A DNA stretch of 64,000 nt from an uncultured Candidatus Berkelbacteria bacterium (GCA_903851235.1 CAINNR010000030.1:13210-77209); one strand, 5' to 3'. Positions 5,175-57,945 are shown, counted from the stretch's first letter. Program-made: numbers and translations. The notes: generated from the letters alone by a model not told the origin.

Positions 5175-5386
5175 CTCTTGCCTCCAAAAGCCGTGTTGTT
5201 TGCGCGATTTGATTCTAGCATTAAACTTTCCAATTATCAAGAGTGTTTTTGTGAGTTGAAAAAATAGGCACAAAGTGGTAAAGTAAAAGCATAAAAGGAG
5301 ATTCTGATGCAGATTTATCACGCAGATAACCGCAGACGAAATTAGTGACAATCGGCGTGAAAGTTTGGTGTAAGAATTACAACACA

Positions 5387-8179: not shown

Positions 8180-8533
8180 TTGGGGATAATAATTTACGAA
8201 GAAAAAATGAAGGAATCAAAAAAAGTAGAACTTGTTGTCTTTGTCCCGGAAAGCCATGCCGAGGCGATTCGAAAAGCAATGGGTGATGCCGGCGCCGGCG
8301 TGATCGGAAATTATACTTATTGTTTTTCGTCATCAAAAAGTACTGGTGATTTTAAACCGCAAGAAGGATCAAATCCATCAATTGGCAAAATTGGAAAGCA
8401 GAAATCAGTTGAAGAAATTCGGATTGAAACTCTTTGTGGTCGTGAAAAAGTTGAAGCAGTTATTAATACAATTTCGGCGGTTCATCCGTATGAAGAAGCG
8501 CCGGTCGATATTTATCCAATGTTGGAAATATAA
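8180..8533 (+). CDS. small alpha/beta protein, CutA1 / PII-like fold candidate (start TTG 8180 or ATG 8207)
   Basis: C-terminal HPYEEAPVDIYPM resembles the CutA HPY(E/Q)xPE motif. Family assignment from memory is uncertain. Confidence 0.4.
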   Translation: MGIIIYEEKMKESKKVELVVFVPESHAEAIRKAMGDAGAGVIGNYTYCFSSSKSTGDFKPQEGSNPSIGKIGKQKSVEEIRIETLCGREKVEAVINTISAVHPYEEAPVDIYPMLEI

Positions 8534-8791: not shown

Positions 8792-10363
8792 TTGAAAAAA
8801 GTTCTACTTGTTATTTTGGATGGTTGGGGGCTCTCGCCTTTAAAAGAAGGTAATTCTACCTATTTGGCAAAAACACCGAATTTGGATTGGGTATTCGGAT
8901 CGTACCCAAAAACTTCACTTTCAGCTTCCGGTATTGATGTCGGAATTACGCCCGGCGAATCCGGAAACTCCGAAGTCGGACACCTGAATTTGGGTTCTGG
9001 CCGTGTGGTTTGGAAGAGTTTACCTCGAATAGACCAAGCAATAGAAAACGCTGGTTTTTTTCGTAATGAAAATTTGATGAAATTGACCGACCAAATAAAA
9101 AAAACCGATGGGACATTGCATCTAATTGGACTTTGCTCTGCCGGCAGTGTTCACTCGAGTCTAAATCACCTATTTGCGCTCTTAAAGTTTGCCAGCGACA
9201 AAAATTTGGAAAAAATTTATATTCACATGATTACAGACGGTCGTGACACGGCGCCACAAGTTGCCAAAGAGGACATTGATCGAATTCAAGCGGAGATTTC
9301 AAAGACAGGGGTCGGCAAAATCGCCACCATTATCGGTCGGTTTTATGCCATGGATCGCGACAAACATTTTGAGCGAGTTGAAAAGGCGTATAATCTTTGG
9401 GTTTTGGGTCAGGGTGATTTTTACTCCGGTGCAAAAGAAGCTATCGACGCCAACTATCGCGCCGGCGCCGACGATGAGAAAATCGGCCCATGTTTAATCG
9501 ACAAGGATGGCCTAATCCGTCCGGGCGATGGTATTATCTTCTTTAACTTCCGAGCCGATAGAGTGCGCCAGATCCTCAATGTTTTTGAAAGTGATAGCTT
9601 CTCCGAATTTCAAAAGCAAAAAATTGACAATTTGAGTATTTTGACGATGACAAAATACTTTGACGATCAGCTATCACCGGTAATATTTCCGCCACTTGAT
9701 ATGAATAATGTTGTCGCTGATATTATCGAATCCAACAATTTAAGTCAAAGTCATATCGCCGAAACGGAAAAGTATGCTCATGTGACCTATTTCTTTAACG
9801 GTGGTGAGGAGAAACCGCACGAGCATGAAGATCAAGTTCTTGTGCCATCACAACGAGTCGAAAGTTACACCACAGCACCAGAGATGTCGGCGGTGGCGAT
9901 TAAAGACAAAGTGGTGGAAGCAATTCAAAATCAAAAAGATTTTATTGTCGTTAATTTTGCCAATGGCGATATGGTCGGCCATACTGGAAATTTGCAGGCG
10001 ACGATTAAGGCGGTTGAGTCGGTTGACGAGAATATTGGTCTGCTACTGTCATCGGCGTCGGCAAAAGGTTATAATGTAATTATCACCGCCGACCATGGAA
10101 ATTGTGAAGTAATGATTAACCCGTCGAGCGGCGAAATTAATAAGGAACACACCGGAAGTCCGGTACCGTTTGTTGTTTGTGACTTGTCGGCAAAACCATT
10201 CACGCCGCAAAACGGTAGCGATTTTAATCATGAATCGTTGTTGGAATATTCCGCTAATGCCCCGACCGGGATATTGGCCGATGTGGCACCAACAGTTTTA
10301 GGCATAATCGGTATCGACAAACCGGCGGAAATGAATGGAATAGATATCAGCAAGTTAATTTAA
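8792..10363 (+). CDS. gpmI: 2,3-bisphosphoglycerate-independent phosphoglycerate mutase (TTG start)
   Basis: ILDGWG and NSEVGHLNLGSGR motifs plus the ADHGN metal site. AGGAGGGG RBS. Confidence 0.9.
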   Translation: MKKVLLVILDGWGLSPLKEGNSTYLAKTPNLDWVFGSYPKTSLSASGIDVGITPGESGNSEVGHLNLGSGRVVWKSLPRIDQAIENAGFFRNENLMKLTDQIKKTDGTLHLIGLCSAGSVHSSLNHLFALLKFASDKNLEKIYIHMITDGRDTAPQVAKEDIDRIQAEISKTGVGKIATIIGRFYAMDRDKHFERVEKAYNLWVLGQGDFYSGAKEAIDANYRAGADDEKIGPCLIDKDGLIRPGDGIIFFNFRADRVRQILNVFESDSFSEFQKQKIDNLSILTMTKYFDDQLSPVIFPPLDMNNVVADIIESNNLSQSHIAETEKYAHVTYFFNGGEEKPHEHEDQVLVPSQRVESYTTAPEMSAVAIKDKVVEAIQNQKDFIVVNFANGDMVGHTGNLQATIKAVESVDENIGLLLSSASAKGYNVIITADHGNCEVMINPSSGEINKEHTGSPVPFVVCDLSAKPFTPQNGSDFNHESLLEYSANAPTGILADVAPTVLGIIGIDKPAEMNGIDISKLI

Positions 10364-25502: not shown

Positions 25503-27314
25503 ATGGAACTGCGAAATATTGCAATTATCGCCCACGTCGATCATGGGAAAACCACACTAGTTGATGGTTTTTTAAAGCAATCTAAAACCTTTCGCGACAA
25601 CGAAGCTTATATGGAACAGGATCTTATTCTCGATTCTAACGATCAGGAACGTGAGCGGGGAATCACGATTTTGGCGAAAAACACGGCGATCAATTATCGT
25701 GGTGTCAAAATCAATATTATCGACACTCCAGGCCATGCCGATTTTGCAGGTGAAGTTGAACGAACGCTAAATATGGCGGAAGGCGCAATTTTGGTCATCG
25801 ATGCCCAAGAAGGACCAATGCCGCAAACGAAATTTGTTTTGAAAAAAGCTTTTGAACTCGGGCTGAAGATCATTGTTGTGATAAATAAAATTGATAAAAA
25901 GAGCGCCGATATTGAGAAGACTATTAACAACACTTATGATTTGTTTTTGGATATGGCGCAAACCGACGATCAACTAGAATTCCCAATTTTTTACGCTCTC
26001 GGTCGGGAGGGAAAATCTTGGAGTGAAATGCCGGAAAATACCGATTCTGATGCTGATTTAACCCCGATCTTGGACGCCATCATCGACTATATTCCAGCAC
26101 CGGAGAAGAATGATGACAAGCCTTTTCAAATGCTGGTTTCGGCGCTCGATTATGACAACTTTATGGGAAAATATGCCGTTGGAAAAATTAAAAATGGTGT
26201 TGTTAAATCGGGTCAACCGGTGATTTTATTGGATGCCGACGGTGTAATCGGCAACGGAAAAATCGAAAAAATCTATCTTAACTCAGGAATGAAAAAAGTT
26301 GAAGTCAATGAAGCTTCATCCGGCGATATTGTCTCAATCGCCGGTATCAAAAATGCTACCATCGGTTACACTGTTGCTGACCCATCGAATCCGCTGGCTT
26401 TGCCGGCGCCGGCGATTGAAGAGCCGACACTGCGGATCTCAATTTATGCCAATACTTCACCATTTGCCGGTCGTGAGGGAAAATTTGTTACCGCCCGACA
26501 ACTCCTAGATCGAATCAAAAAGGAGTTGGAAACCAATGTCTCAATGAGACTTGATGCGTCACAAGATGGAAATTATATTTTATCCGGTCGCGGCGAACTG
26601 CATCTTTCCGTATTTATTGAAAATTTGCGTCGCGAAGGCTTTGAACTTCAAGTCGGCAAACCGGAGGTAATTACAAAAGTCATTAATGGCGTTCTTTCGG
26701 AGCCGACGGAGGAATTAACAGTTGATGTAAAGAGTGATTTTGCCCAAACAGTCATTGGGGAAATTAGTCGAAGACGGGGAATGCTAATTCATCAAAATGA
26801 AAATCCTGATGGCACAACCAGATTGGTTTTCGAAATTTCGACTCGCGGAACGCTTGGACTCAGAAATGCCTTAATGACGGCAACAAAAGGAACGGCGGTT
26901 ATCAACTCGCTATTTTTGCGATACTCTCCGGTTGGTCCGGCGTTACCGAAAACCAGAAGCGGAGTTTTGATTGCTTTCAGCCCGGGAAAAACAGTTGCCT
27001 ATGGACTAAATATCGCCCAACAACGCGGCGTTACATTTATCCCGCCACAAACCGAGGTCTACACAGGCATGATTGTCGGGATTACTCCAACCGAGCGAGA
27101 TATGGAAATTAATGTTACCAAAGAAAAACAGCTGACAAATGTTCGGGCGGCAAGTTCAGATATGATCACAATTTTGACGCCACCGACAATATTATCACTT
27201 GAACAGTGTATCGATTTTTTGGAAGATGATGAACTTTTGGAGGTTACGCCAAGTTCTTTGCGACTGAGAAAAAAGATTTTGGATGCAACTCAGCGAAATC
27301 GAGCCAGAAAATAA
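25503..27314 (+). CDS. typA: translational GTPase TypA/BipA
   Basis: G-domain [10 protein letters not shown] and [11 protein letters not shown]-like domains. Confidence 0.95.
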
Positions 27315-27454
27315 ATTGAAGTAATTACACAGATTCGTGACACAGATATTGTGTAAATAAATCCGAAACAATTTGTCATTGCGAGTCAGCAGACGTGGCA
27401 ATCTATTTTAGACGAACTGGTTTCCTTTTTGGTATAGATTGATATAATAAGCCT

Positions 27455-27988
27455 ATGGACAAACCCGATGCCAAAAAATTGCAATTAAATAACTATGCCT
27501 TTATCGACGGGCAGAATCTTAATCTTGGAATTAAAGAACTTGGCTGGAAATTAGATCTAAAGAAATTCAGAAAATATCTGGAGGATAAGTATCAAGCCAG
27601 AAAAGTGTATTACTTTATCGGCTATATCGACGGAAATCAGGTTTTATATCAAACACTTCAAGAATACGGATATATTTTGATTTTTAAGCCAACTTTAGAA
27701 GGTCCGGGTGGGAAAATCAAAGGCAATTGTGATGCCGAGTTGGTACTTCACACAATGATTGAATATCCAAATTATCGTCAGGCGGTTATTGTTACCAGTG
27801 ATGGTGATTTTGCCTGTCTAGTCGATTATCTGATTGAGAAAGAAAAATTAAAAACAGTTCTCGCTCCTAGCAACAAAAAATATTCTTCACTTTTGCGAAA
27901 AAGTACCAGAGGAAGGTTTGTAGCTTTCATGGATGTTTTAAAGAACAAACTTATTTATAAAGCTCAAAAAAAGAAAAGGACCCCTTAG
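27455..27988 (+). CDS. NYN-domain (LabA-like, PIN-fold) protein
   Basis: YAFIDGQNL...VTSDGDF acidic motifs typical of NYN. TATAAT 6 nt upstream of ATG, a leaderless-type arrangement. Confidence 0.75.
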   Translation: MDKPDAKKLQLNNYAFIDGQNLNLGIKELGWKLDLKKFRKYLEDKYQARKVYYFIGYIDGNQVLYQTLQEYGYILIFKPTLEGPGGKIKGNCDAELVLHTMIEYPNYRQAVIVTSDGDFACLVDYLIEKEKLKTVLAPSNKKYSSLLRKSTRGRFVAFMDVLKNKLIYKAQKKKRTP

Positions 27989-28083
27989 GGACAAAACCCG
28001 TCTGGAGCCTTTTCGTAGTGATTCTGTTACAATTATATCAAATGAAATAAATATGTCAATAGACTTAAAAATTGGGAGAAATA

Positions 28084-31100
<3,017 letters not shown>

Positions 31101-31105
31101 AAAAA

Positions 31106-31125
31106 GTCCCGCGGATGAGCGGGAC
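31106..31125. terminator. hairpin GTCCCGCggatgaGCGGGAC, T-run on the minus side (terminator for the 31141-31722 gene)
   Basis: 7-bp GC stem flanked by A-runs on plus, which read as T-runs on minus. Confidence 0.55.
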
Positions 31126-31140
31126 AAAAAATAACCAGAA

Positions 31141-31722
31141 CTAGTCTTCTCGGAATGCTTTTATGCCGAAAAGTCCTTGACAGTATTTACATTGGGCGGC
31201 TTCAAGTGGTGTGGTGCCTTGGGTCGGAAACAAAACTCTGCGATCAACAACGTGTAATCCTGTCGGAGACAGTTGGCATCGTTGGCATTGCTCAATCGGC
31301 AAAATGATCGATGGTATTTGTTCAGGCTGCCTGCCTTCAACCACCTCAAGGACGATCACGACCTCTCTATTTTCTTCGCTTTTGTTTCTCCACAGACTGT
31401 AGGTTTTTTGGTCGCTACTCAATTCTCTCAAAGCTTCTAAAAGAGTCACAATCTGAATTCCGTCTACCAATGAAAAGTCTTCCATTCTCCAGAATCTAGG
31501 ATCTTCCAGTTCTTGATTGGTAAGGCGAAGCAATTCTCCTCCGGGAGCGGTTCTGACGATTTCAGTTGTCGGAAGCAATTGATTGTCACTCAGAAAAAAG
31601 ACGGGGAAAATGACAACGTTTTGATCCTGCTCTTGAGAGATAAGAATCTGTCCATTTAGATGGCAACAATCGATTGCCGTCGGAACAGAGTAAGGTGCAT
31701 AATTTCTCGTTCTGCGAATCAT
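31141..31722 (-). CDS. hypothetical protein with C-terminal CxxC...CxxC zinc-ribbon-like motif (193 aa)
   Basis: ORF with its own terminator. CQRCQ ... CKYCQ near the C-terminus. Confidence 0.5.
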   Translation of the reverse strand: MIRRTRNYAPYSVPTAIDCCHLNGQILISQEQDQNVVIFPVFFLSDNQLLPTTEIVRTAPGGELLRLTNQELEDPRFWRMEDFSLVDGIQIVTLLEALRELSSDQKTYSLWRNKSEENREVVIVLEVVEGRQPEQIPSIILPIEQCQRCQLSPTGLHVVDRRVLFPTQGTTPLEAAQCKYCQGLFGIKAFRED

Positions 31723-31801
31723 CTCGTCACCTCTGTCCTCGTATTAGGTTCGCGAGCAAAGTGTAGCAAAATTTTAAATATTTATCAAGTGCCATCGGTT
31801 G

Positions 31802-31830
31802 TTGAAAAAAAATCATGCTAGTGCTAGAAT
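31802..31830 (+). promoter_or_regulatory. sigma70-like promoter TTGAAA-17-TAGAAT for gatC
   Basis: Hexamers at 31802-31807 and 31825-31830. Lies inside the N-terminal extension of the track ORF 31799. Confidence 0.45.
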
Positions 31831-31840
31831 ACGATTAAAT

Positions 31841-32155
31841 ATGGTTGATAAAAATATAAAATCAACGAATAATTCTTGGGTTGCGAATGTTGCCCAACTA
31901 GCTCGGATTGAACTCACCAATGCCGAGGAAACCAAATTTGCCGGCCAGCTCGGCGCGGTTTTGGAGAATTTTGAACTCTTAAATCAAGTTTATACCGACA
32001 ATGTCGAAATTACCGCTCAGGTCACCGGGCTGACCAATGTTTTTCGCTCCGACGAAGTAAAAAATCCCGCTGGTAAAAAATCCCGCGACGAACTTTTATC
32101 AAATGCACCGGAAGTAGAAGACGGTTCGATAAAAGTCCCAGGAGTTTTTCAATAA
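31841..32155 (+). CDS. gatC: Asp/Glu-tRNA(Asn/Gln) amidotransferase subunit C
   Basis: VAQLARIELTNAEETKFAGQLGAVLENFELLNQV is typical GatC. Start placed at the ATG downstream of the promoter. Stop overlaps the gatA start. Confidence 0.8.
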   Translation: MVDKNIKSTNNSWVANVAQLARIELTNAEETKFAGQLGAVLENFELLNQVYTDNVEITAQVTGLTNVFRSDEVKNPAGKKSRDELLSNAPEVEDGSIKVPGVFQ

Positions 32156-33633
32156 TGACTGATTTATATAAACTAACAATTTCGGAAGCGGCGAAAAAGC
32201 TGAAAACCGGCGAGATTACCTCGCTGGATTTAACGCAATCCTGTTTGGATCGAATCGCCGAAGTTGAGCCGAAAATTCAGGCGTTTATTACCATTTGCAA
32301 CCAATCGGCAATTTCGCAAGCGAAGGAAAGTGATAGGCGTAGAACTGAAAACAAACCGCTTTCCGACCTCGACGGAGTTCCTTTTGCCGCCAAGGATTTG
32401 TTTTGTACCAAAGGAGTTTTGACAACGGCGGCTTCAAAAATTCTTAATGATTTTGTCCCCGATTTTGAGTCAACGGTGACAAAAAAATTGCTTGACGCCG
32501 GTTGTGTGCTTTTAGGCAAAACCAATCTTGATCAATTTGCAATGGGTTCATCAACTGAAACTTCGGCCTACAAAACGACAAAAAATCCTTGGGACTTGGC
32601 TCGCGTTCCCGGTGGATCGTCGGGTGGCTCGGCTGCTGCTGTTGCGGCCGATGAATGTATTTTTTCTTTGGGCACCGATACTGGCGGTTCAATCCGTCAG
32701 CCGGCATCGCTTTGCAGCGTCGTCGGACTAAAACCAACCTACGGTCGAGTCAGCCGATACGGCGTAATCGCAATGGCGTCGTCGCTTGATACCATCGGTC
32801 CGATCACCAAAACTGTTGAAGACGCGGCGATTGTGATGAATGTCATCGCCGGAATTGATGATAAAGACTCAACAACACTGCCGAATAAAACTCCGAATTA
32901 TAAAAAATCATTGGCCGGTGACATCTCCGGTTTGAAAATCGGAGTTCCAAAAGAGTTTTTTGGTCAAGGCATGAACAGCGAAGTTGAAAAGATCGTTCAA
33001 AGTGCGATTGATTTTTACCGGAGAAACGGCGCAGAAATTGTCGAAGTTTCTTTACCTCATGTAAAATACGCCCTTTCTGTCTACTATATTATTATGCCGG
33101 CGGAGGTCGCTTCGAATTTAGCCAGATTTGATGGTATCAGGTACGGTTATTCAAAAATCAAGAACCAAAAATCGGCGATAAAAAATCTGGAGGATGTTTA
33201 CATTTCCAGTCGAACCGAGGGTTTCGGCGATGAAGCCAAGCGGCGAATAATTTTGGGTAATTATGTTCTGTCCTCCGGTTATTACGACGCCTATTACAAG
33301 AAAGCTCAGCAGGTCCGAACTTTGGTCAAGAAAGATTTTGAAAAAGCTTTTGAAAAAGTTGATATTTTAATTACGCCTGTTTCACCAACCGCGGCTTTTA
33401 AAATCGGCGAAAAAACCGATGACCCGATGCAAATGTATTTATCGGATATCCACACGGTGCCAATAAATCCTGCCGGAGTGCCGGCAATTTCAATTCCCGC
33501 CGGTTTCACACTTGACAACTTGCCGGTTGGAATCCAAATCATCGGTCCGCATTTGGCTGAAGAGTCAATTTTCAAAGTCGCCAACGCTTTTCAACAAGCA
33601 ACTGATTTTCATCAAAGAAAGCCAAAAATTTGA
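32155..33633 (+). CDS. gatA: Glu-tRNA(Gln) amidotransferase subunit A
   Basis: Amidase signature GGSSGGSAAAVAA and catalytic Ser/Lys context. Confidence 0.95.
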   Translation: MTDLYKLTISEAAKKLKTGEITSLDLTQSCLDRIAEVEPKIQAFITICNQSAISQAKESDRRRTENKPLSDLDGVPFAAKDLFCTKGVLTTAASKILNDFVPDFESTVTKKLLDAGCVLLGKTNLDQFAMGSSTETSAYKTTKNPWDLARVPGGSSGGSAAAVAADECIFSLGTDTGGSIRQPASLCSVVGLKPTYGRVSRYGVIAMASSLDTIGPITKTVEDAAIVMNVIAGIDDKDSTTLPNKTPNYKKSLAGDISGLKIGVPKEFFGQGMNSEVEKIVQSAIDFYRRNGAEIVEVSLPHVKYALSVYYIIMPAEVASNLARFDGIRYGYSKIKNQKSAIKNLEDVYISSRTEGFGDEAKRRIILGNYVLSSGYYDAYYKKAQQVRTLVKKDFEKAFEKVDILITPVSPTAAFKIGEKTDDPMQMYLSDIHTVPINPAGVPAISIPAGFTLDNLPVGIQIIGPHLAEESIFKVANAFQQATDFHQRKPKI

Positions 33634-33635
33634 TC

Positions 33636-34682
33636 ATGAGCAAAAAAATCACAGTGAAAAAATACGATGTGATAATCATCGGGGCAGGTCCGGCTGGACT
33701 TTCAGCTGCTAAAATTTTAGCTGAAAATGGCAAAACGGTTTTGGTTTTAGAAAAAAACAAGGTGATCGGTCCAAAAGTTTGTGCTGGTGGTTTGACGACC
33801 AAGGATTTTAAACTCGGAATTAATAAAAAAATCGCTGATAAATTTTTTTCAAAAGTCGTTTTGCATACGCCGTTGTTTGATGATGAAATAAAAGATGACA
33901 AGCCTTTTGTTGCAACTGTTGACCGAGGCAGGTTGGGTAAGCGTATGGTTAAGGAAGCCGAAAAAGTTGGAGCAGAAATAAAAATAGATGTTGAAGTGAA
34001 AGATATAAAAAATGCTTTTGTTGAAATAGCTGATGGCAAAAAAATCTACTACAAATACCTAATTGGTGCCGATGGCTCAAATTCCTTGGTAAGAAAAATA
34101 CTGAATATAAAAAAAGAAACCCAAATGATTGCTTTCCATTATAAAGTTGCGGAGAGACTTCCTGACATTGAATTATTTTTTAATGCTGAATTGTTCGGTG
34201 CCGGTTATGCCTGGATTTTTCCGCACAAAGATTTTACTTCAATTGGCTGTGGCGCCGATATTAGATTTTTAGTGGACGCTCAACAGCTTGAGGAAAATTT
34301 CAAAAAATGGGCAAGAGAAAATTATCCCAAAGTCCAGTTTAAAGTTGATGATCGCGAAGCCTGGTATATTAATTATGATTACAGGGGCCACGAATTCGGC
34401 AATAAATTTCTGGTTGGCGACGCGGCAGGTTTCGCTTCCGGTTTGACTGGTGAGGGAATGTATTTTGCGATGATTTCCGGCATAGAAATTGCGAAAAAAA
34501 TAATTGATCCAGAATATAATCAATCAAAATTGAAAGAAATCATAGCATTGAAGAAAAAACACGAGGACATTCTAAATTTAATGGAGAAAAATAAAGTTTT
34601 GTCTCAAATTGAATATAATCTACTTGGATTGGCACAAAAAAGTCGATTACTGGACAGTCTATTAATTGAGGAATTTTGTTAA
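33636..34682 (+). CDS. FAD-dependent oxidoreductase, geranylgeranyl reductase family
   Basis: GAGPAG Rossmann motif, GADG, and GDAAG near the C-terminus. TTG at 33630 is an alternative start. Confidence 0.75.
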   Translation: MSKKITVKKYDVIIIGAGPAGLSAAKILAENGKTVLVLEKNKVIGPKVCAGGLTTKDFKLGINKKIADKFFSKVVLHTPLFDDEIKDDKPFVATVDRGRLGKRMVKEAEKVGAEIKIDVEVKDIKNAFVEIADGKKIYYKYLIGADGSNSLVRKILNIKKETQMIAFHYKVAERLPDIELFFNAELFGAGYAWIFPHKDFTSIGCGADIRFLVDAQQLEENFKKWARENYPKVQFKVDDREAWYINYDYRGHEFGNKFLVGDAAGFASGLTGEGMYFAMISGIEIAKKIIDPEYNQSKLKEIIALKKKHEDILNLMEKNKVLSQIEYNLLGLAQKSRLLDSLLIEEFC

Positions 34683-34688
34683 CAAACC

Positions 34689-35336
34689 ATGGGTAGAAAA
34701 CAACGCGAAAAAAAGGCAAGAAAAATAGAAGAGATGACGACTTTGGAGGAAGAGATGAAAGCCAAGGCTAATTTTTTCGACCCAAAAAAGTTTTTTTTGT
34801 CGCCAATCTTCATCATCTTTGTTATTTGTATTGTGGCTCTGATCGCCTACCCTTTTGTAAGCCAAAAGTATTTTCCGCAGGGGAAATACGCAATTTTAGA
34901 AACCTCCGAGGGCAATATTAAAATAGAGTTGCGAGCCGACAAAGCGCCAAAAACCGTTGCCAATTTTGTTTCATTGGCAAAATCCGGTTTTTACAAAAAT
35001 ATGATTTGGCACCGAGTGGTTAAAGGTTTTGTTATTCAAACCGGTGACCCGACCGGAACCGGAACCGGTGGCGCCGGGAGACAGGTCAATGATGAAATTT
35101 CCGATTTGAATTTTACCGCCGGTATTGTCGGTATGGCGAATGCCGGAGCCAACACCAATGACTCGCAATTTTTTATCACCACAGTCGATGGCCAAACATC
35201 ACTCAACGGAAAATATACTTCGTTCGGTCAAGTTGTCGAAGGCATGGACGTGGTAAAAAAAATTGAAGCGACACCAACCGATTCCAACGAAAAACCGCTT
35301 TCACCGGTTTATCTAAAAAGTGTGATATTAAAATAA
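34689..35336 (+). CDS. membrane-anchored cyclophilin-type peptidyl-prolyl cis-trans isomerase
   Basis: N-terminal TM plus cyclophilin core (FHRVVKGFVIQTGDP, GMANAG, QFFIT). Confidence 0.85.
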   Translation: MGRKQREKKARKIEEMTTLEEEMKAKANFFDPKKFFLSPIFIIFVICIVALIAYPFVSQKYFPQGKYAILETSEGNIKIELRADKAPKTVANFVSLAKSGFYKNMIWHRVVKGFVIQTGDPTGTGTGGAGRQVNDEISDLNFTAGIVGMANAGANTNDSQFFITTVDGQTSLNGKYTSFGQVVEGMDVVKKIEATPTDSNEKPLSPVYLKSVILK

Positions 35337-36077
35337 TGGAATCATTAGCAGAAAAAAATTTTATTTTTTTAGATGAGTCTGGAAAACCTGAAGTGTTTTC
35401 AAGTCGCGGAGTAAATTTAGTTGTAAAAAATCAGGCATCAAAATTCTTAGTTATTTCAGCGATCGGAACAACGGACCAACTTGATATACAAAGAAAAGTT
35501 ACAGCTTTTCGATCAGCTTTTGAATGATAACCAATTGACCAAAATTTTTTTGTCAGCGTACACACCAGATGCATTTCATGCGCAAGTTGATTACCCTGAA
35601 GTAATGGAAAAATTTTATGTTTTTATTAATTCTTTGAAAGAAAATAAAATAGATGTTATCGTGGTTGACAAATTGAGATGTTACGTGCCACTCCAACAAA
35701 ATTCTGGGAAAATGTATGGGGTTATGGCTGGACAATTATTGAAGAATATCTGTCATCAATCAAACAATACTGAGGTTATTTTTTCAAGAAAAGATAGCAA
35801 ATTAAAACTTCAAAAAGAACTTGAAGCCGAAGTAGAGAAAGTCCGGTTAGACTATTTACAGCAACATCCGAATTTAGATGCTAAATATTCATTGGCATAT
35901 CATCACAATCCACATTACACTCACGGTGCTTTACAAATAGCTGATTATATTTCTTTCGCGGTTTTTCAGGTTTTCGAAAATCAAAATAGAAAATGGTATG
36001 ATTTGGTTAAGCCGAGCATTGGCAAAATTCAAGATATATGTAATAAAAAATACTTCACTCGTAGCAACCCGCTGTAA
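35336..36077 (+). pseudogene. DUF3800-family gene split by a frameshift (ORFs 35336-35527 and 35481-36077)
   Basis: The first ORF begins with the DUF3800 N-terminal FLDESG motif. The second ORF carries the C-terminal HGALQIADYIS segment. Frames differ by 1 across an A-rich stretch around 35470-35500. Confidence 0.5.
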
Positions 36078-36290
36078 CTATCCAATTAAGGAAGTGCGAA
36101 CTTCGCACGTTTCATTCAGCGATTTGCTACCAATGAAGTATCTGTAGTAAGTATAACAAAGTGTGATAAAGTATGTCAATAGTCTAACAATAAAAAAATG
36201 GGAGGCGTTGCGACGTGACACGTAGTCAAGCGTTCGTTTGATCCTAGCATATCAAACTGTAAAGTAGTTTTTTCAAACTAAGGGAGAAAA

Positions 36291-36332
36291 ATGAGCGAAA
36301 CATTGAAACCGGAAAAGAATAAACAAAATTAA
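36291..36332 (+). CDS. possible 13-aa sORF MSETLKPEKNKQN with strong RBS, 4 nt upstream of the next gene
   Basis: AAGGGAG lies 4 nt before the ATG. May be a leader peptide or may simply reflect the RBS context. Confidence 0.2.
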   Translation: MSETLKPEKNKQN

Positions 36333-36336
36333 AATA

Positions 36337-36771
36337 ATGTCAAGGCGTAATCAACAAACCGTTTTAGAGAAAATTGTTCTGGGCATTTTTGCCGGGATTT
36401 GGTGGCTCGTGAAATTGCCGTTTCGTCGGAAAAAAAGTGGCGGAAAAATTTCTCTTGCCGACCAAAAGTATATTATGTCCAAACGTCATGAAATTGAAAA
36501 AATGGCCCAAAGTGATAATATATATGAGTTAAAGCATGCGGTAATTGAGGCTGATATATTGGTTGATTTTATTTTGAAAAAGCGTGGATTTGCCGGTGAA
36601 ACTTTTGCTGACCGGTTGCGTAGTGCCGAGAAAAAAATCGATCAGGCGAATTATCAAAATCTTTGGAACGCCCACAAAGTTCGAAACCAAATCGCCCACG
36701 ACGATGTGGAAATTAGTAAAGGACAATTAATAAAAGCAATAAGAACATTAATGGAGGATTATTATGCCTGA
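36337..36771 (+). CDS. membrane-anchored protein with C-terminal HEPN-like Rx4H motif
   Basis: TM segment LGIFAGIWWLV. C-terminal KVRNQIAHDD fits the HEPN Rx4-6H signature. Domain call is tentative. Confidence 0.45.
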   Translation: MSRRNQQTVLEKIVLGIFAGIWWLVKLPFRRKKSGGKISLADQKYIMSKRHEIEKMAQSDNIYELKHAVIEADILVDFILKKRGFAGETFADRLRSAEKKIDQANYQNLWNAHKVRNQIAHDDVEISKGQLIKAIRTLMEDYYA

Positions 36772-37213
36772 AGGATTACCCGGTTTTAATTCGGAATCAG
36801 TGACAAACCAACGACTTAGCCAGATTGAAAAAACTAGAGATAAATTAAATAATCTAATTTCTTCTCTGGCGTCCGGTTATCATTATTTTTTACCAACGGC
36901 AGCTCAAACGACAAAATTTTTTGCTGAAAGCAGCCCTGATTCAGCAGGCTTCCATAAAATGAATGATAGGCGGCAAAAGCTTGCGGAAATTGGTGTTGAT
37001 ATTAGTCGGCAGATGGAAGTTTATGACTTAACCCAAGAGGAAGTAAATAGTTACGAAGGGATTATTTCCGCCGCCAAAAGTTCGGGTGAGGTAAATGATG
37101 AGGAACTGGATGCAGTTGAAGCAACAGAAAAAAAGATGATTGAAATTTATCAGGCACTGAAAAAAATGGGTTACGAAGATAGTGATTTGGGAGTGGCCGA
37201 AACATCGGAGTGA
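36764..37213 (+). CDS. acidic hypothetical protein (149 aa), translationally coupled to the 36337-36771 gene
   Basis: ATGCCTGA start-stop overlap. No family recognised. Confidence 0.5.
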   Translation: MPEGLPGFNSESVTNQRLSQIEKTRDKLNNLISSLASGYHYFLPTAAQTTKFFAESSPDSAGFHKMNDRRQKLAEIGVDISRQMEVYDLTQEEVNSYEGIISAAKSSGEVNDEELDAVEATEKKMIEIYQALKKMGYEDSDLGVAETSE

Positions 37214-37216
37214 GAA

Positions 37217-38632
37217 ATGCCAGAGTTTAAAACCATAATCGGGCTGGAAATTCATTGCCAGCTGAAAACCAAGAGTAAAATGTTTTGCTCCTGTAATAAT
37301 AATGCTGAGAATGCCGAACCGAACACTTTGGTTTGTCCGGTCTGTTTGGCGATGCCGGGAACTTTACCGGTGACAAACCAAACGGCGGTTGAAATGACGG
37401 TGATGACTGGCTTGGCGTTTGGCTGTCAGATTCCGGTTGAGTCCAAGTTTGACCGCAAGCACTATTTTTATCCTGATTTGCCGAAAGGTTATCAAATATC
37501 TCAATATGATCAGCCACTTTGCAAAGGTGGAAGTGTTGAAATTAATGACCATATTATCCGTCTAAACAGAATTCATTTGGAGGAAGATGCTGGTAAGTTG
37601 ACTCATCCTGTTGGCAAAGATCACTCATTGGTTGATTTAAATCGGGCCGGAACACCGTTGATGGAGATCGTTTCCGAGCCGGATATTACTACGCCGGCGG
37701 AGGCGCGACAATTTATGGAGGAGTTGCAACTTGCGCTTCGTTATCTTGGAGTCTCAGACGCCGATATGGAAAAGGGACATTTGCGCTGTGACGCCAATAT
37801 TTCGATCCAAAAGAACGGGAAATCATCACCAATTGTTGAGATAAAAAACCTGAATTCCTTTAAATTCGTTGAACAGGCTTTAGCGTTTGAGGAGAAGAGA
37901 TTGACGGCGGATTTTGCCAATTGGCCGGAAAATCGACTTAAAATCACTCGCGGTTTTGATTCAAATAAAGGAATTACTTTTGAACAGCGACGAAAAGAGG
38001 AAGCGGCTGATTATCGCTATTTTCCCGAACCGGATCTACCGCCGATTCAGATTTCAGAGAGTCGGATATCAGAGATCAAGAAAGAAATCAAGGAATTGCC
38101 GAAACAGAAGCATCAGAGATATGTTGATGCCGGAATTCGGCCGGATATAGCGGAGAAATTGATTCGCCAGCCACAGCTGGTTGAATATTTGGAGAGCGCA
38201 GCCGAGTTGAAGCATGATATAGCATTGTTTGTTTCCGAAGAAGTTAGCCGGGCGTTGGTTGAAAATAAAATATCATTTGCCGATTATCAAAAACGCGTGC
38301 CGATTTCCAAAATCGCCGATTTATTGAATTTGGTCGGCGAAGGAATTATTTCAAAAACTTCCGCCAAAGAGATCTTCGCAGAAATGATAATGACAGGCGA
38401 GGCGCCGGCTGGTATAATTAAAAAGCAGGGGCTAGAGCAGGTTTCAGATTGCTCTGAGCTCGAATCGACAATCAATCGAGTCGTTGATGAAAATCCGGAT
38501 CTGGTTGAAAAATATCGAGCCGGGAAGACACAGGTTATCGGTTTTTTTGTCGGGAAAATTATGCAAACAACTAAAGGTAAAGCAAATCCGCAAGTCTTGA
38601 ATAGGTTGTTGACCCAAAGGCTTTCAAAATAA
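37217..38632 (+). CDS. gatB: Asp/Glu-tRNA amidotransferase subunit B
   Basis: IGLEIHCQL, Zn-binding Cys cluster and C-terminal YqeY-like domain. Confidence 0.95.
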   Translation: MPEFKTIIGLEIHCQLKTKSKMFCSCNNNAENAEPNTLVCPVCLAMPGTLPVTNQTAVEMTVMTGLAFGCQIPVESKFDRKHYFYPDLPKGYQISQYDQPLCKGGSVEINDHIIRLNRIHLEEDAGKLTHPVGKDHSLVDLNRAGTPLMEIVSEPDITTPAEARQFMEELQLALRYLGVSDADMEKGHLRCDANISIQKNGKSSPIVEIKNLNSFKFVEQALAFEEKRLTADFANWPENRLKITRGFDSNKGITFEQRRKEEAADYRYFPEPDLPPIQISESRISEIKKEIKELPKQKHQRYVDAGIRPDIAEKLIRQPQLVEYLESAAELKHDIALFVSEEVSRALVENKISFADYQKRVPISKIADLLNLVGEGIISKTSAKEIFAEMIMTGEAPAGIIKKQGLEQVSDCSELESTINRVVDENPDLVEKYRAGKTQVIGFFVGKIMQTTKGKANPQVLNRLLTQRLSK

Positions 38633-38687: not shown

Positions 38688-39260
38688 ATGGACACCATTC
38701 TCAGCATCCCCGAAAGGTTTTGGCAACCGATCGCCAATTTTGGTCCGAAAATTCCAACAATCATTATTAGTTTGGTTGTCGGTTATTTTATTATCCAGAT
38801 AATTACCGCTGTCTTGAATCGAGCTTTAAAATTTTCAAAAATGCCACGAGCGTTGATTTCCGTCATCGTATCATTGGCGTTGATTGTAATGTGGGTGGCG
38901 CTCTTTGCTGAAATTGCTAGAGAACTTGGTTTGGGATCGCTGGCAGTTACCATTTCTGGATCGCTGGCAGTTCTGGCCTTGGCATTGGCTTCCGGAGCTT
39001 CCGGGTTGGCGGCTGATATCATCTCCGGCGTATTTTTGGCTCGGGATCCCGACTTTGAAATCGGCTACAAAATAAAAGTTGGCGATGTGATAGGGATTGT
39101 TCACAGCGTTGATATTCGAAAAATCAGGGTTGTTGACGATGCCGGTATTATCTATATTTTTCCAAATGCCAAGTTGGACAAAGAGGGCTGGCAGGTCGTT
39201 TCCCGTGATGTTGCAGACAATAAAATTGATATTAAAAAGTTGTTAAATAAACAGAAATAA
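38688..39260 (+). CDS. small MscS-family mechanosensitive channel (190 aa)
   Basis: TM helices plus beta-domain motif VGDVIGIVHSVDIRKIRVVDDAGIIYIFPN. Confidence 0.7.
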   Translation: MDTILSIPERFWQPIANFGPKIPTIIISLVVGYFIIQIITAVLNRALKFSKMPRALISVIVSLALIVMWVALFAEIARELGLGSLAVTISGSLAVLALALASGASGLAADIISGVFLARDPDFEIGYKIKVGDVIGIVHSVDIRKIRVVDDAGIIYIFPNAKLDKEGWQVVSRDVADNKIDIKKLLNKQK

Positions 39261-39273
39261 AAGGAGAACTAAA

Positions 39274-40482
39274 ATGCCGAAGATTGAGTATGAAAATCCA
39301 AGTGATTTAGAAGCAATAAAGCCGAAAAAGAAACGGGGAAAGTTTGGGTTGATAATATTGATAGTTGTGATTTCATTAATTTTTGGCTCGGTTTCCGGTG
39401 TCGGCAGCATTATTTTGTTGTCAAAAAATAATGGCAGTTTGGCAAAAAAAATCGGTTTTATCAATTGGGACAATTTAACTATCCCGCTGACAGAAACAAA
39501 AAAAATTAATGTTCAAGAATCGAGCGCGATTATCGATAGCGCAAATAAGGTTTCTCCGGCAGTGGTTTCAATCGTCGCTAAATCTCAGGTGCAAACGATT
39601 TTTGGTGATACCTCTCAATCAGAGAGTGCCGGCACTGGTTTTATTATCACTTCTGATGGTTTGATTTTAACCAATAAGCATGTCGTGTCTGATGCCAATG
39701 CAACATATACGGTTATCGCCGCCGACGGCAAAAATTATGACGGCAAAATTCAATCAATCGATCCATTAAATGATTTGGCTGTGGTAAAAATTACTGCCAC
39801 CGGACTTCCGGTGGTTGAGCTTGGCGATTCTGATCAACTTTCAGTCGGCCAGTGGGTGGTGGCAATCGGTAATGCTTTGGGACAATATCAAAACACGGTG
39901 ACTGCCGGAGTGATTTCGGCCAAACAGCGGGATATTCAAGCCAGTGATTCAACTGGTGCAGCAACTGAAAATCTTTCAGGAATGTTGCAAACCGACGCGG
40001 CAATCAACTCCGGAAATTCCGGTGGGCCATTGGTTAATTTGCAAGGCCAGGTTATTGGAATTAACACTGCGGTTGCGTCCGGTGCGCAGGGAATCGGTTT
40101 TGCGATTCCGATCAATGCCGCCAAAAGCGCTATCGATTCAATCAAAAAAACCGGCAAAATTACTCGACCATATCTGGGGATCCGATATCTACCGATTACT
40201 CCGGATATCGCCAAAACCAATAATTTAAAATATGATTACGGCGCACTTGTAGTTCGTGGAAACGGCATCGGACAAGTCGCTGTTGTTCCCGGTAGCCCAG
40301 CCGACAAAGCTGGAATAGTTGAAAATGATATTGTTTTGGAGATTAACGGTGAACGAATTGACAGTACAAACAGTCTAACCTCATTGCTTTCAAAATATAA
40401 CGTAGGCGATACTGTGTCGCTGAAAATCTCTCACGCCGGCAGCGAAAAAACAGTCAAAGTCATGTTGCAATCGATGTCGTAG
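39274..40482 (+). CDS. htrA: HtrA/DegP-family serine protease with PDZ domain
   Basis: Catalytic triad context (TNKHVV, D, GNSGGPLVN) and C-terminal PDZ domain. Confidence 0.9.
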   Translation: MPKIEYENPSDLEAIKPKKKRGKFGLIILIVVISLIFGSVSGVGSIILLSKNNGSLAKKIGFINWDNLTIPLTETKKINVQESSAIIDSANKVSPAVVSIVAKSQVQTIFGDTSQSESAGTGFIITSDGLILTNKHVVSDANATYTVIAADGKNYDGKIQSIDPLNDLAVVKITATGLPVVELGDSDQLSVGQWVVAIGNALGQYQNTVTAGVISAKQRDIQASDSTGAATENLSGMLQTDAAINSGNSGGPLVNLQGQVIGINTAVASGAQGIGFAIPINAAKSAIDSIKKTGKITRPYLGIRYLPITPDIAKTNNLKYDYGALVVRGNGIGQVAVVPGSPADKAGIVENDIVLEINGERIDSTNSLTSLLSKYNVGDTVSLKISHAGSEKTVKVMLQSMS

Positions 40483-52891: not shown

Positions 52892-53715
52892 ATGGATAAA
52901 AAACAGATTGCAATTTTTGAAGGCAAAAAAATCCGTCGTCACTGGGACGAAAAATCTGAGCAGTGGTTTTTTTCAGTAGTAGATATTATTGCTGTTCTTA
53001 TTGATCAAATGGATTTTCAGTTAGCTAGAAAATATTGGAACAAGCTGGCAGAAAGACTTCGCAAAGAAGGAAGTCAGTCGGTGACAAATTGTCACCGACT
53101 GAAATTGCAAGCATCAGACCGCAAATTTTATCAAACTGATGTTGCTAGTACGGAAACTATCTTCCGCATTATTCAATCGGTTCCGTCAAAAAAAGCTGAA
53201 CCAATAAAATTATGGCTAGCACGTGTTGGCAATGAACGAATAGAAGAAATTCAGAATCCAGAAAAAGCGTTAGATCGGTCAAGAGAATATTGGCAAAGAA
53301 TGGGTCGAAGCCAAAAATGGATTCAGCGGCGAATGATGGGGCAGGAAGTTAGAAATAAATTAACCGATTATTGGGCTGATCACGAAGTAAAAAAACAAGA
53401 TGAATATGCGATTCTGACAAATATAATCCATGCAGAGTGGACTGACTTGTTAGTAAAGCAACACAAAGAATTAAAAAATTTAAAGGCTGAAAATTTGCGC
53501 GATTATATGACGATGCAGAGTTAATTTTTACCGCTTTGGCCGAACTTTCTACTCGCCAAATCGCAGAAGGAATGGATAGTACAGGTCTTGAGGAAAATAA
53601 AATTCTAGCGGAAAAAAGTGGGCGAATCGCTAAAAGTGCCAGAATGGAATTGGAGCAAAAATCAGGTAAAAAGATTGTAAGTAGCGAGAGTTTCAATTTA
53701 CTCAGTAAGAAATAA
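52892..53715 (+). pseudogene. Bro-N / DinD-like anti-repressor family gene with a 1-nt frameshift near 53510-53515
   Basis: N-terminal Bro-N-like region (IAIFEGKKIRRHWDEKSEQWFFSVVDIIAVL). The reading frame ends at 53524 but continues in the +2 frame to 53715 with no start or RBS (ELIFTALAELSTRQ...GKKIVSSESF). Restoring one base in ATGACGATGCAGAG would join the two parts. Confidence 0.5.
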
Positions 53716-53727
53716 CTGCGAGTAATT

Positions 53728-54063
53728 ATGGAAATAGGACGTTTTAATCCAGAAGCGAAAATTAGTGATCCCAAGGCCAGATATCTTGGAATGCTGACTG
53801 AGATGATTGGTTGGAGCGACGAAATTCCGGCTGAAGATATCCACAATGGAAATTATAAAGTTAGAAAAAATTGGTGGGTGACAATTCGAAATATTACATA
53901 TTTGATATTACGTAATTGTATAATTTCAGATGAATCTAAACGACAAATTAGTAATTTCAATGACAAGTTTAGTTCAGAAGAATTTAATGGTAGGTACACA
54001 ACCAAAGAAGATATCGCTGAAGGAAATGAATTCGTTGATTTTTTGATCAGAGAATTGCAATAA
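53728..54063 (+). CDS. hypothetical protein (111 aa)
   Basis: ORF between the Bro-N pseudogene and hydB. No family recognised. Confidence 0.4.
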   Translation: MEIGRFNPEAKISDPKARYLGMLTEMIGWSDEIPAEDIHNGNYKVRKNWWVTIRNITYLILRNCIISDESKRQISNFNDKFSSEEFNGRYTTKEDIAEGNEFVDFLIRELQ

Positions 54064-56817: not shown

Positions 56818-56886
56818 TGCACAATATTAAAGATGCGGAAATTGAAAACAAAACGTTTTTTCTTCAGATTGGCCGGAGTTATGCTT

Positions 56887-57945
56887 ATGAAAAACAATGA
56901 ACAGATTGCAAAACAAAATACATTTACAGAATTTTTACTTTATACGACGCCGAATGGCAGGGTGAAAGTTGAGATATTTTTGCGTGATGAAAATGTTTGG
57001 TTAACACAAGATAAAATTGCTCTTTTGTTCGGTGTTCAAAGGCCGGCAATTACCAAGCATTTGAAAACCATCTTTGAAAGCGGAGAATTAGATGAAAAAA
57101 TGGTTAGTTCCATTTTGGAACATACCACGCAACATGGTGCTTTGGAGGGGAAAACACAAACTCAATCGGTAAAATTTTATAACCTTGATGCGATTCTTTC
57201 CATTGGATATCGAGTAAATAGCGTCCAAGCTACACAATTCCGTATTTGGGCGACGGAAAGATTGAAAGAATATATTATCAAGGGTTTTTCAATGGATGAT
57301 GAACGGCTGAAGGATCCTCGCTATATTTTTGGTAAGGATTATTTTGAGGAGCAATTGGCTAGAATCAGAGATATCCGTTCCAGTGAACGAAGATTTTATC
57401 AGAAAATAACCGATATTTATTCACAATGTAGCGCCGATTATGATCCAAATGAAGAAATTACAAAACAATTTTTTGCCACTGTCCAAAATAAACTTCATTT
57501 TGCTATCAGCGGTCAAACCGCGGCGGAAATTATTTATCAAAGAGCCGGCAGTAAAAAACCGAACATGGGTTTGACTACATGGAAAAATGCGCCCAGAGGG
57601 GCAATTCGAAAAACTGACATCGTCATTGCCAAGAACTATCTTGACGAAAAAGAGCTGGATGGATTAAACAGAATTGTCACAATGTATCTTGATTATGCTG
57701 AAATGCAAGCGCGAAACGGCAAATTGATGCAGATGAAAGATTGGGTGAAAAAATTGGATGCATTTTTGCAGTTTAATGAAAAAGATCTTTTGCAGAGAAA
57801 TGGTAAAATTAGTCATGAAGTCTCGTTGGCTTTGGCTAAATCTGAATATGAAAAATATCGGATTGTTCAAGATAAAAATTATATTTCTGATTTTGACCGT
57901 GAAGTCAAAAAGTTTTTAGATTTTGATAAAAAAAAGAAAGAATAA
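56887..57945 (+). CDS. RhuM-family protein (start 56833, 56881 or 56887)
   Basis: FLLYTTPNGRVKVEIFLRDENVWLTQDKIALLFGVQRPAITKHLKTIF is the RhuM-type N-terminal region. Confidence 0.7.
   Translation: MKNNEQIAKQNTFTEFLLYTTPNGRVKVEIFLRDENVWLTQDKIALLFGVQRPAITKHLKTIFESGELDEKMVSSILEHTTQHGALEGKTQTQSVKFYNLDAILSIGYRVNSVQATQFRIWATERLKEYIIKGFSMDDERLKDPRYIFGKDYFEEQLARIRDIRSSERRFYQKITDIYSQCSADYDPNEEITKQFFATVQNKLHFAISGQTAAEIIYQRAGSKKPNMGLTTWKNAPRGAIRKTDIVIAKNYLDEKELDGLNRIVTMYLDYAEMQARNGKLMQMKDWVKKLDAFLQFNEKDLLQRNGKISHEVSLALAKSEYEKYRIVQDKNYISDFDREVKKFLDFDKKKKE

Follow-up and report, generated by a model that had tools for sequence, protein, structure and literature searches.

Predicted resident cyclophilin and membrane-anchored HEPN genes, with variable junction cargo, between gatA and gatB of a Berkelbacteria bacterium

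Bacteria of the Candidate Phyla Radiation (CPR), or Patescibacteria, are believed to depend on GatCAB to make Gln-tRNA and Asn-tRNA. In a stretch of 64,000 nucleotides from an uncultured Candidatus Berkelbacteria bacterium (GCA_903851235.1 CAINNR010000030.1:13210-77209; hereafter the window), gatC and gatA are contiguous (31841-33633) and gatB starts only at 37217. The classical contiguous gatCAB is not present: 3583 nt and six open reading frames (ORFs) separate the gatA stop from the gatB start. How did these genes come to lie inside an essential operon, and do they belong there? The original prediction, made from the sequence of the window, held that gatCA and gatB had been split by a 3.6-kb insertion of unrelated genes. 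Its gene list and coordinates were all borne out by ORF listing and family scans (Table 1): GatC, GatA and GatB each score above the curated equivalog cut-off of their NCBIfam models, and the gap does contain a flavoprotein of the geranylgeranyl-reductase (GGR) family, a membrane cyclophilin (ppi), a frameshifted DUF3800 gene, a HEPN-like membrane protein of 144 aa (W144) and, coupled to it, an acidic protein of 149 aa (W149). The interpretation is another matter. Our comparisons indicate that the split gatCAB is an old, stable operon architecture, in which ppi and the membrane-anchored HEPN gene have been resident between gatA and gatB since deep in the lineage, and just some of the other genes are later insertions at the junctions.

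Synteny was compared in two sets of relatives (L-numbers are labels of the compared contigs and loci). The first set comprised the gene neighbourhoods of eight GatB homologues (79 to 51% identity). In every case the order was ligA-gatC-gatA ... gatB-(MscS)-HtrA-prmC-prfA-rpmE, and in all eight a HEPN-family gene was found immediately upstream of gatB; a cyclophilin of 215-221 aa was present in seven. The ppi gene had the same position in L083-L090 (44-77% identical), and the order gatB-MscS-HtrA-prmC-prfA-rpmE-rpsB-tsf-frr was maintained in L085-L090. An all-against-all BLAST identified the conserved gene of 142-148 aa as the orthologue of W144 (47-69% identity), and not of W149. For the second set, metagenomes were scanned with the HEPN alignment alone and the best 80 of 484 confirmed candidate stretches were taken (33-60% identity), with counts made over non-redundant loci having at least 1.6 kb of flank. 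The gatA gene was found upstream of the HEPN gene in 47 of 48 such loci, gatB downstream of it in 39 of 49, and ppi in 22 of 48. The ten loci without a nearby gatB mostly encode a longer form of the protein (about 190-330 aa), whose named relatives belong to Paceibacterota, Parcubacteria and Kaiserbacteria; with Berkelbacteria, these make up the taxonomic breadth of the family. In these Paceibacteria-type loci, ligA, an ORF of ~95-100 aa (probably gatC), gatA and the HEPN gene follow one another, separated or overlapping by a few nt.

Both ppi and the transmembrane (TM) HEPN gene were found between gatA and gatB down to ~45-50% GatB identity, and the HEPN gene without ppi down to ~37-40%. The identity of the HEPN proteins to that of the window tracks the identity of GatB (Spearman 0.69, p 3e-7), and dN/dS between two close relatives was 0.06 for HEPN, 0.04 for ppi and 0.03 for GatB. 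As a control, we used non-CPR gatA loci from a GatA scan of genome contigs, which had returned mostly non-CPR bacteria at 48-59% identity: a member of the HEPN family was found in none of the 61, and gatB adjoined gatA in 41. The latter count speaks for a contiguous gatCAB that was recently broken by a horizontally acquired 3.6-kb block, and the GC dips in parts of the gap and its defence-associated pseudogene point the same way. However, ppi and the HEPN gene keep their place in relatives whose GatB is 37-79% identical, their GC content and codon usage are native-like, and the sole demonstrable scar encloses 1001 bp instead of 3.6 kb. The original prediction had itself named an arrangement conserved among distant relatives as the outcome that would speak for an old operon architecture, and the synteny comparison found it for part of the gap, namely ppi and HEPN. 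By that standard the gatCA/gatB split is old and stable, and one recent insertion of unrelated genes is therefore refuted; we give it very little probability. In one relative, L089, gatA was not called in 5270-6762, yet tblastn similarity to GatA extends up to 6749; the gene may be frameshifted or uncalled.

The source is metagenome-assembled sequence and the frameshift in the DUF3800 gene lies close to A-runs, both of which would favour an assembly artefact, be it a chimeric contig or a frameshift from sequencing error. Against this, contigs of other samples match 30786-34480 and 35158-37453 at 99.7-100% identity, gap-free and with the frameshift included, and relatives show matching gene order. 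The gatA/GGR junction and the ppi-to-gatB stretch are seen again independently in L001, L002, L091 and L092, of which L091, assembled separately from another sample, has 99.74% identity, 6 single-nucleotide polymorphisms (SNPs), zero gaps and the same DUF3800 split; gatC is a 104-aa call in L001 and L002. The independent contigs leave 34481-35157 (the GGR 3' end and the 5' part of ppi) uncovered. Since contigs from other samples reproduce both the arrangement and the frameshift, we take neither to be an artefact, an explanation of negligible probability.

What of the rest of the gap? Three cargo junctions can be distinguished, gatA/ppi (j1), ppi/HEPN (j2) and HEPN/gatB (j3), each of which holds non-homologous cargo or nothing among relatives. 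At j1 the window has the GGR gene, where L083 and L088 have nothing, L085 and L100 EamA, L087 GlnA, L089 a sigma-70-like gene and L090 MazG. At j2 the window has the DUF3800 cassette and most relatives nothing, the exceptions being an ORF of 161 aa in L088, a NYN gene in L089, and NYN with a methyltransferase (MTase)-Mrr fusion in L101. At j3, occupied by W149 in the window, most relatives again have nothing and others acidic ORFs; L122 has NYN, L158 a MjaI endonuclease and a methylase, and L123 RhuM/Fic, MjaI and a methylase. In total NYN appears three times among the relatives' junction cargo, and MjaI-type restriction-modification systems twice. All cargo ORFs of at least 130 aa are on the operon strand, and they are tightly packed. 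The idea of an insertion hotspot thus holds for the junctions, where cargo varies, but not for the 3.6-kb gap as a whole, in which ppi and HEPN are resident. Complete restriction-modification gene sets lie co-oriented within the gatCAB operon of relatives at L123 1847-4320, L158 8375-9791 and L101 5766-8004, comprising MjaI-type endonuclease with N6/N4 methylase, the MTase-Mrr fusion, and a RhuM/Fic gene. The glutamine synthetase gene at j1 of L087 (7621-8946) fits the use of glutamine as amide donor by GatA.

Composition divides the gap in a similar manner. Mean GC in the window is 0.414 (sd 0.032, 64 genes); DUF3800, at 0.327 (z -2.7), is the lowest of the 64 genes, and GGR stands at 0.358 (z -1.7), while ppi (0.418), HEPN (0.384) and W149 (0.398) are native-like, as is the codon usage of ppi and HEPN. 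The view of the gap genes as insertions can thus be kept for GGR and DUF3800, which are lineage-specific and of low GC, but not for the conserved residents ppi and HEPN, nor for W149, whose patchy family keeps to one slot. The likely true start of GGR is ATG 33636. Among solved structures, its best match is 3oz2, the digeranylgeranylglycerophospholipid (DGGGPL) reductase of Thermoplasma (E 1e-13, with full-length similarity); against the specific equivalogs ChlP/BchP, DGGGPL reductase and MenJ it scores far below each cut-off (123 vs 343, 64 vs 780 and 53 vs 700), and tblastn found no match to it in L094-L173. On this evidence GGR is lineage-specific cargo at j1.

The clearest insertion is that of the DUF3800 cassette. 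Each half of the gene (35336-35527 and 35481-36077) is under the Pfam threshold; when repaired by a one-base skip, the ORF is 246 aa long, scores 34.4 bits (threshold 21) over profile positions 1-148, the whole of PF12686, and matches PADLOC DUF3800_VII (E 9e-14). The +1 shift lies within 35451-35527, a zone with both frames open. As originally predicted, the gene is frameshifted, and with the same split in a second strain, L091, it is a real pseudogene whose frame is not intact. By reading the junctions we found a 12-bp direct repeat, ATTAAAATAATG, which a repeat search of 33400-37400 at 14 nt or more had missed. It has exactly two occurrences in the window (0.03 expected), 1001 bp apart and at equal offset (-9) from start codons. 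Virtual excision of one copy with the intervening DNA (1001 bp) gives ...ATATTAAAATAATGTCAAGGCG, which is the ppi-stop/HEPN-start overlap of L083, L085, L099, L100 and L102; the expected junction of an empty site reads ...GATATTAAAATAATGTCAAGGCG. Because the 12-bp target duplication flanks DUF3800 together with the 259-nt tail, and excision restores the ancestral junction, the two are one discrete and clean insertion of 1001 bp. No terminal inverted repeats were found at the cassette ends, nor did family scans find a transposase or integrase domain in any gap ORF. At 18 other cargo junctions no convincing flanking repeat was found; the insertions there are either older or differently formed.

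The spacer in the 3' part of the cassette had been described as structured, a description that its folding z-scores on both strands (-1.07 and -0.39) do not support. A known RNA family in the spacer was ruled out with Rfam 15: no match was found at E<=1 in 35900-36500, and the four weak matches at E<=10 in 35200-36400 all lie outside the spacer, are at chance level, and include no DUF3800 motif; at gathering scores no Rfam family was found anywhere in the window. The spacer has a terminator-like hairpin at 36094-36108 and, as predicted, a short ORF of 13 aa (36291-36332, seen by translation), which has a Shine-Dalgarno-like AAGGGAG upstream and stops 4 nt short of the W144 ATG, in a different frame from W144. 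A block at 36198-36289 shares 65% identity across 91 nt with the L089 spacer that precedes HEPN (9075-9178), with a core of GAGGCGTTGCGAyrTGACAC and TATCAAACTG (pattern of the block: GAGGCGTTGCGANNTGACAC). The cargo upstream of the block differs, being DUF3800 in the window and NYN in L089. The block had no match in viral contigs and, by nhmmer, none among the other compared loci. It could be an internal promoter, an operator, or a shared cassette 3' end.

We propose that the locus is an old, vertically inherited Patescibacteria super-operon, ligA-gatC-gatA-(j1)-ppi-(j2)-TM-HEPN-(j3)-gatB-mscS-htrA. Cargo would land at, or survive only at, start-codon junctions, co-oriented with the operon, and would take over the expression signals of the resident gene, with gatB remaining transcribed. 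The A-rich stop/start overlaps "AAAATAATG" (TAATG) may supply microhomology for integration.

What, then, is the resident HEPN gene? In an alignment of 36 homologues, H113, K114, R116, N117, A120 and H121 are invariant, giving an R-N-x3-H motif that conforms to the Rx4-6H motif of HEPN proteins. Searched with the HEPN profile, 1.84 billion cluster representatives gave 3074 clusters at E<=1e-3. Of the 149 top representatives, 148 have RNxxxH, and most carry at least one hydrophobic helix upstream. Cluster members are named just as "Patescibacteria group", and some distant ones have two TM helices together with weak, sub-threshold matches to SH3_3. The AlphaFold2 (AF2) model of W144 (pLDDT 88) has a TM helix at 9-26 and a helical bundle that agrees with the all-alpha HEPN fold, and its nearest structures in a fold search are HepT-type HEPN toxins; a PDB sequence search with the HEPN profile, in contrast to the fold search, matched nothing meaningful. 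W144 has no match in PADLOC and PHROGs, exact-sequence look-ups of the window GatB and W144 found no record, and distant family members reach a sub-threshold 21.2 against 27.5 for Pfam HEPN_Swt1. The conserved motif, the fold and the TM helix agree with the HEPN-like membrane protein of the original prediction. Since the motif is invariant, purifying selection strong and the coupling to gatA and gatB tight, the protein is probably an active dimeric RNase that faces the cytoplasm, tethered to the membrane and co-expressed with GatCAB.

Whether the HEPN protein works with GatCAB turns on how its position is read. The gene is single-copy in the window. Of the neighbours it is the tightest, the gap or overlap with gatA and gatB being just a few nt in most loci, and it is more persistent than ppi, since it still follows gatA directly in the Paceibacteria-type loci, where ppi and a nearby gatB are both missing; it remains by gatA where mscS and htrA do not either. 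These observations, with its place immediately upstream of gatB in every GatB-chosen context, argue against genomic inertia as the sole cause, by which ppi and TM-HEPN, once fixed early, would stay put because tiny genomes rearrange little and depend on long operons, the HEPN protein having an unrelated membrane or RNA role and no tie to GatCAB. Inertia would nevertheless account for ligA, mscS, htrA, prmC and prfA, which are co-linear over equal distances, and ppi, MscS and HtrA, its neighbours, act in the envelope and not as translation factors. It would also account for the ligA matches (tblastn) that precede gatA in 23 of 29 loci from CPR and in 17 of 59 from other bacteria: since ligA-gatCA synteny has no known functional link, conserved adjacency here can be inertia rather than shared function. 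We regard inertia alone as possible. As for a role in GatCAB function, the HEPN protein would probably be tied to tRNA-dependent amidation, for instance with tRNA or mRNA as its target at the membrane; the functional link itself is guilt by association, and we hold it to be rather doubtful.

The overlapping W149 raises one more possibility, that the two genes form a toxin-antitoxin or abortive-infection addiction module lodged in an essential operon. Jackhmmer groups W149 with same-slot ORFs of L089, L095, L104 and L105 (E-values being relative to a small database). The family is patchy, its slot always from HEPN to gatB, and W149 appears to belong to a fast-evolving acidic family; its single-sequence AF2 model is all-helical (pLDDT 68), and it has no match in Pfam, NCBIfam, PADLOC and PHROGs. 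In L105 (2502-3878) the HEPN-to-gatB slot is filled by three tandem W149-like paralogues (133, 131 and 148 aa). A small, acidic, fast-evolving, translationally coupled and locally triplicated partner would suit an antitoxin, as HepT-type structural matches would suit a toxin, and defence-like cargo is found at the same junctions. Most loci, however, have the HEPN gene with neither an acidic partner nor an MNT-type antitoxin, because of which a module of this kind is unlikely as the general case, if conceivable for this genome: no nucleotidyltransferase domain was found in the neighbouring window genes, and in L083, L085 and L087 the HEPN gene has ppi and gatB as its immediate neighbours. It is moreover single-copy, vertically inherited and under strong purifying selection, its product lacks the defence- and phage-database matches mentioned above, and it is membrane-anchored, as HepT toxins are not. 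The addiction module is quite improbable. W149 (36764-36773) and gatB (37217-37226) both start with ATGCCnGAn (M-P-E), where gatB of relatives starts with MSD or MDE; the shared start may be what is left of a gatB start duplicated when W149 was inserted, or chance.

Returning to the old super-operon with resident ppi and HEPN genes and junction cargo, we consider this reading as a whole probable, and its architecture and insertion parts highly so. Several points weigh against it. Most of the metagenomic loci carry no taxonomy, and the HEPN-chosen loci are those most similar to W144, so distant members of the 3074-cluster family could sit elsewhere. The synteny of ligA with gatCA is found in CPR and also in some Firmicutes. 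W144 reaches the threshold of no Pfam HEPN model (best pEK499_p136, 14.1 bits vs 26.6), and a residue-by-residue superposition of its Rx4H motif on a solved catalytic site was not achieved. The RNase activity, the interaction with GatCAB and co-transcription are sequence-based predictions. Finally, a flanking repeat is present at one of the 19 tested cargo junctions, because of which the insertion mechanism draws on one clean case together with positional regularities. The coordinates of the features are collected in Table 1.

Table 1. Features of the ligA-to-htrA block, in positions of the 64,000-nt window
Feature	Coordinates	Strand	Support or remark
ligA	29043..31100	+	685-aa ORF; conserved neighbour upstream of gatC
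unnamed 193-aa ORF	31141..31722	-	sole minus-strand gene in the ligA-to-htrA block
gatC	31841..32155	+	TIGR00135, 80.3 bits vs cut-off 47.1
gatA	32155..33633	+	TIGR00132, 620.7 bits vs cut-off 481.1
GGR-family FAD flavoprotein	33630..34682	+	TIGR02032, 164 vs cut-off 158.8
ppi, membrane-anchored cyclophilin	34689..35336	+	PF00160, E 5e-50; hydrophobic N-terminal segment
12-bp direct repeat ATTAAAATAATG, left copy	35327..35338	+	includes the overlap of the ppi stop with the DUF3800 ATG
DUF3800 pseudogene, +1 frameshift	35336..36077	+	two ORFs, 35336-35527 and 35481-36077; cargo at junction 2
3' spacer of the DUF3800 cassette, 259 nt	36078..36336	+	contains hairpin, conserved block and short ORF
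12-bp direct repeat, right copy	36328..36339	+	contains the HEPN ATG
W144, 144-aa TM+HEPN protein	36337..36771	+	minimal HEPN, membrane-anchored; predicted conserved operon core
W149, 149-aa acidic helical protein	36764..37213	+	pI 4.6; start overlaps W144 stop by 8 nt; junction 3
gatB	37217..38632	+	NF004012, 599.9 bits vs 338; GatB_N and GatB_Yqey domains both found
MscS-like channel	38688..39260	+	Pfam MS_channel matches; conserved neighbour downstream
HtrA protease	39274..40482	+	conserved neighbour downstream

Outside the gap, the minus-strand ORF between ligA and gatC has no match in Pfam, NCBIfam or PHROG; same-position counterparts of weak similarity were seen in L088 (38% identity) and L090 (27%). 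Upstream of ligA, the gap of 27315-29042 that separates it (start 29043) from BipA (25503-27314) holds a second start-codon-precise insertion. It contains a NYN gene (27455-27988, GC 0.348) and an ORF of 322 aa (28072-29040, GC 0.357) without a family match. In L083, BipA and ligA are 40 nt apart, and the promoter-like leader of ligA there (TTGACA..TATAAT..CTATG) precedes NYN in the window. Other low-GC, possibly acquired genes of the window are at 8180-8533, 52892-53524, 53728-54063 (GC 0.33) and 56833-57945.

Neither the HEPN fold nor the gat genes, DUF3800 or GGR are new in kind. The novelty lies in a gatA-(ppi)-TM-HEPN-gatB architecture that CPR lineages conserve, and in the use of its junctions by incoming genes; full-text literature searches returned nothing relevant on HEPN with GatCAB, HEPN with Patescibacteria, or gatCAB with the Candidate Phyla Radiation. 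Being conserved inside gatCAB in two or more candidate phyla, the HEPN gene is a candidate for a factor still missing from indirect aminoacylation or from the quality control of that pathway, with an invariant RNase-type motif, a membrane anchor, no Pfam model and more than 3000 clusters in its family. The junction cargo suggests that genomes nearly free of intergenic sequence can gain accessory genes and defence genes inside essential operons, which stay unbroken; restriction-modification systems, NYN, Fic, DUF3800 and one clean-scar insertion at a start codon are the evidence. A further reading has the HEPN protein as a hitherto unrecognised fourth partner of GatCAB in CPR, a predicted RNase that would, for example, clip or clear unamidated Glu-tRNAGln and Asp-tRNAAsn or hold the transamidosome at the membrane, and, separately, the junctions as a general, integrase-free landing pad for defence cassettes; it is in our judgement unlikely.

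How does the locus compare with known systems? Against the canonical gatCAB (Bacillus-type, three contiguous genes), the subunits, their order and their strand are the same here, and ligA is nearby as in some Firmicutes; the window and the sampled Patescibacteria differ in having one or two extra resident genes, the cyclophilin and TM-HEPN, and variable cargo inside. HepT/MNT toxins and the minimal HEPN proteins of UPF0332/DUF86 (PDB 5yep, 7ae2, 8xdj, 2hsb and 1wwp) are 8-13% identical to W144, which in contrast to HepT/MNT has an N-terminal membrane anchor, lacks an MNT partner and appears as a vertical, single-copy gene of a housekeeping operon. The KEN domain of Ire1 is a membrane-tethered HEPN RNase, cytoplasmic after a membrane anchor and sometimes with an extracytoplasmic part. 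W144 shares this layout of anchor and HEPN by analogy only; it has no kinase domain and no evidence of signalling, and the comparison covers the HEPN fold. The flavoprotein falls in the superfamily of archaeal DGGGPL reductases and bacterial GGR, as it passes TIGR02032 and fails every specific equivalog. DUF3800 genes travel with structured RNAs, DUF3800-I to XI (Weinberg et al. 2017, PMC5737381); the full-length repaired DUF3800 gene likewise shares its 1001-bp insertion with a 259-nt non-coding tail, but here the tail has neither an Rfam 15 match nor significant folding, and the gene is frameshifted. The junctions do not behave as integrons in that Pfam scans of window genes and of the relatives' larger cargo ORFs found no integrase (attC sites were not searched for), the host site lies inside an essential operon, and a repeat is present at one junction only. 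The analogy with integron arrays and defence islands extends to cargo that is co-oriented, tightly packed, non-homologous, at fixed positions and under host transcription, and that includes restriction-modification systems, NYN and Fic.

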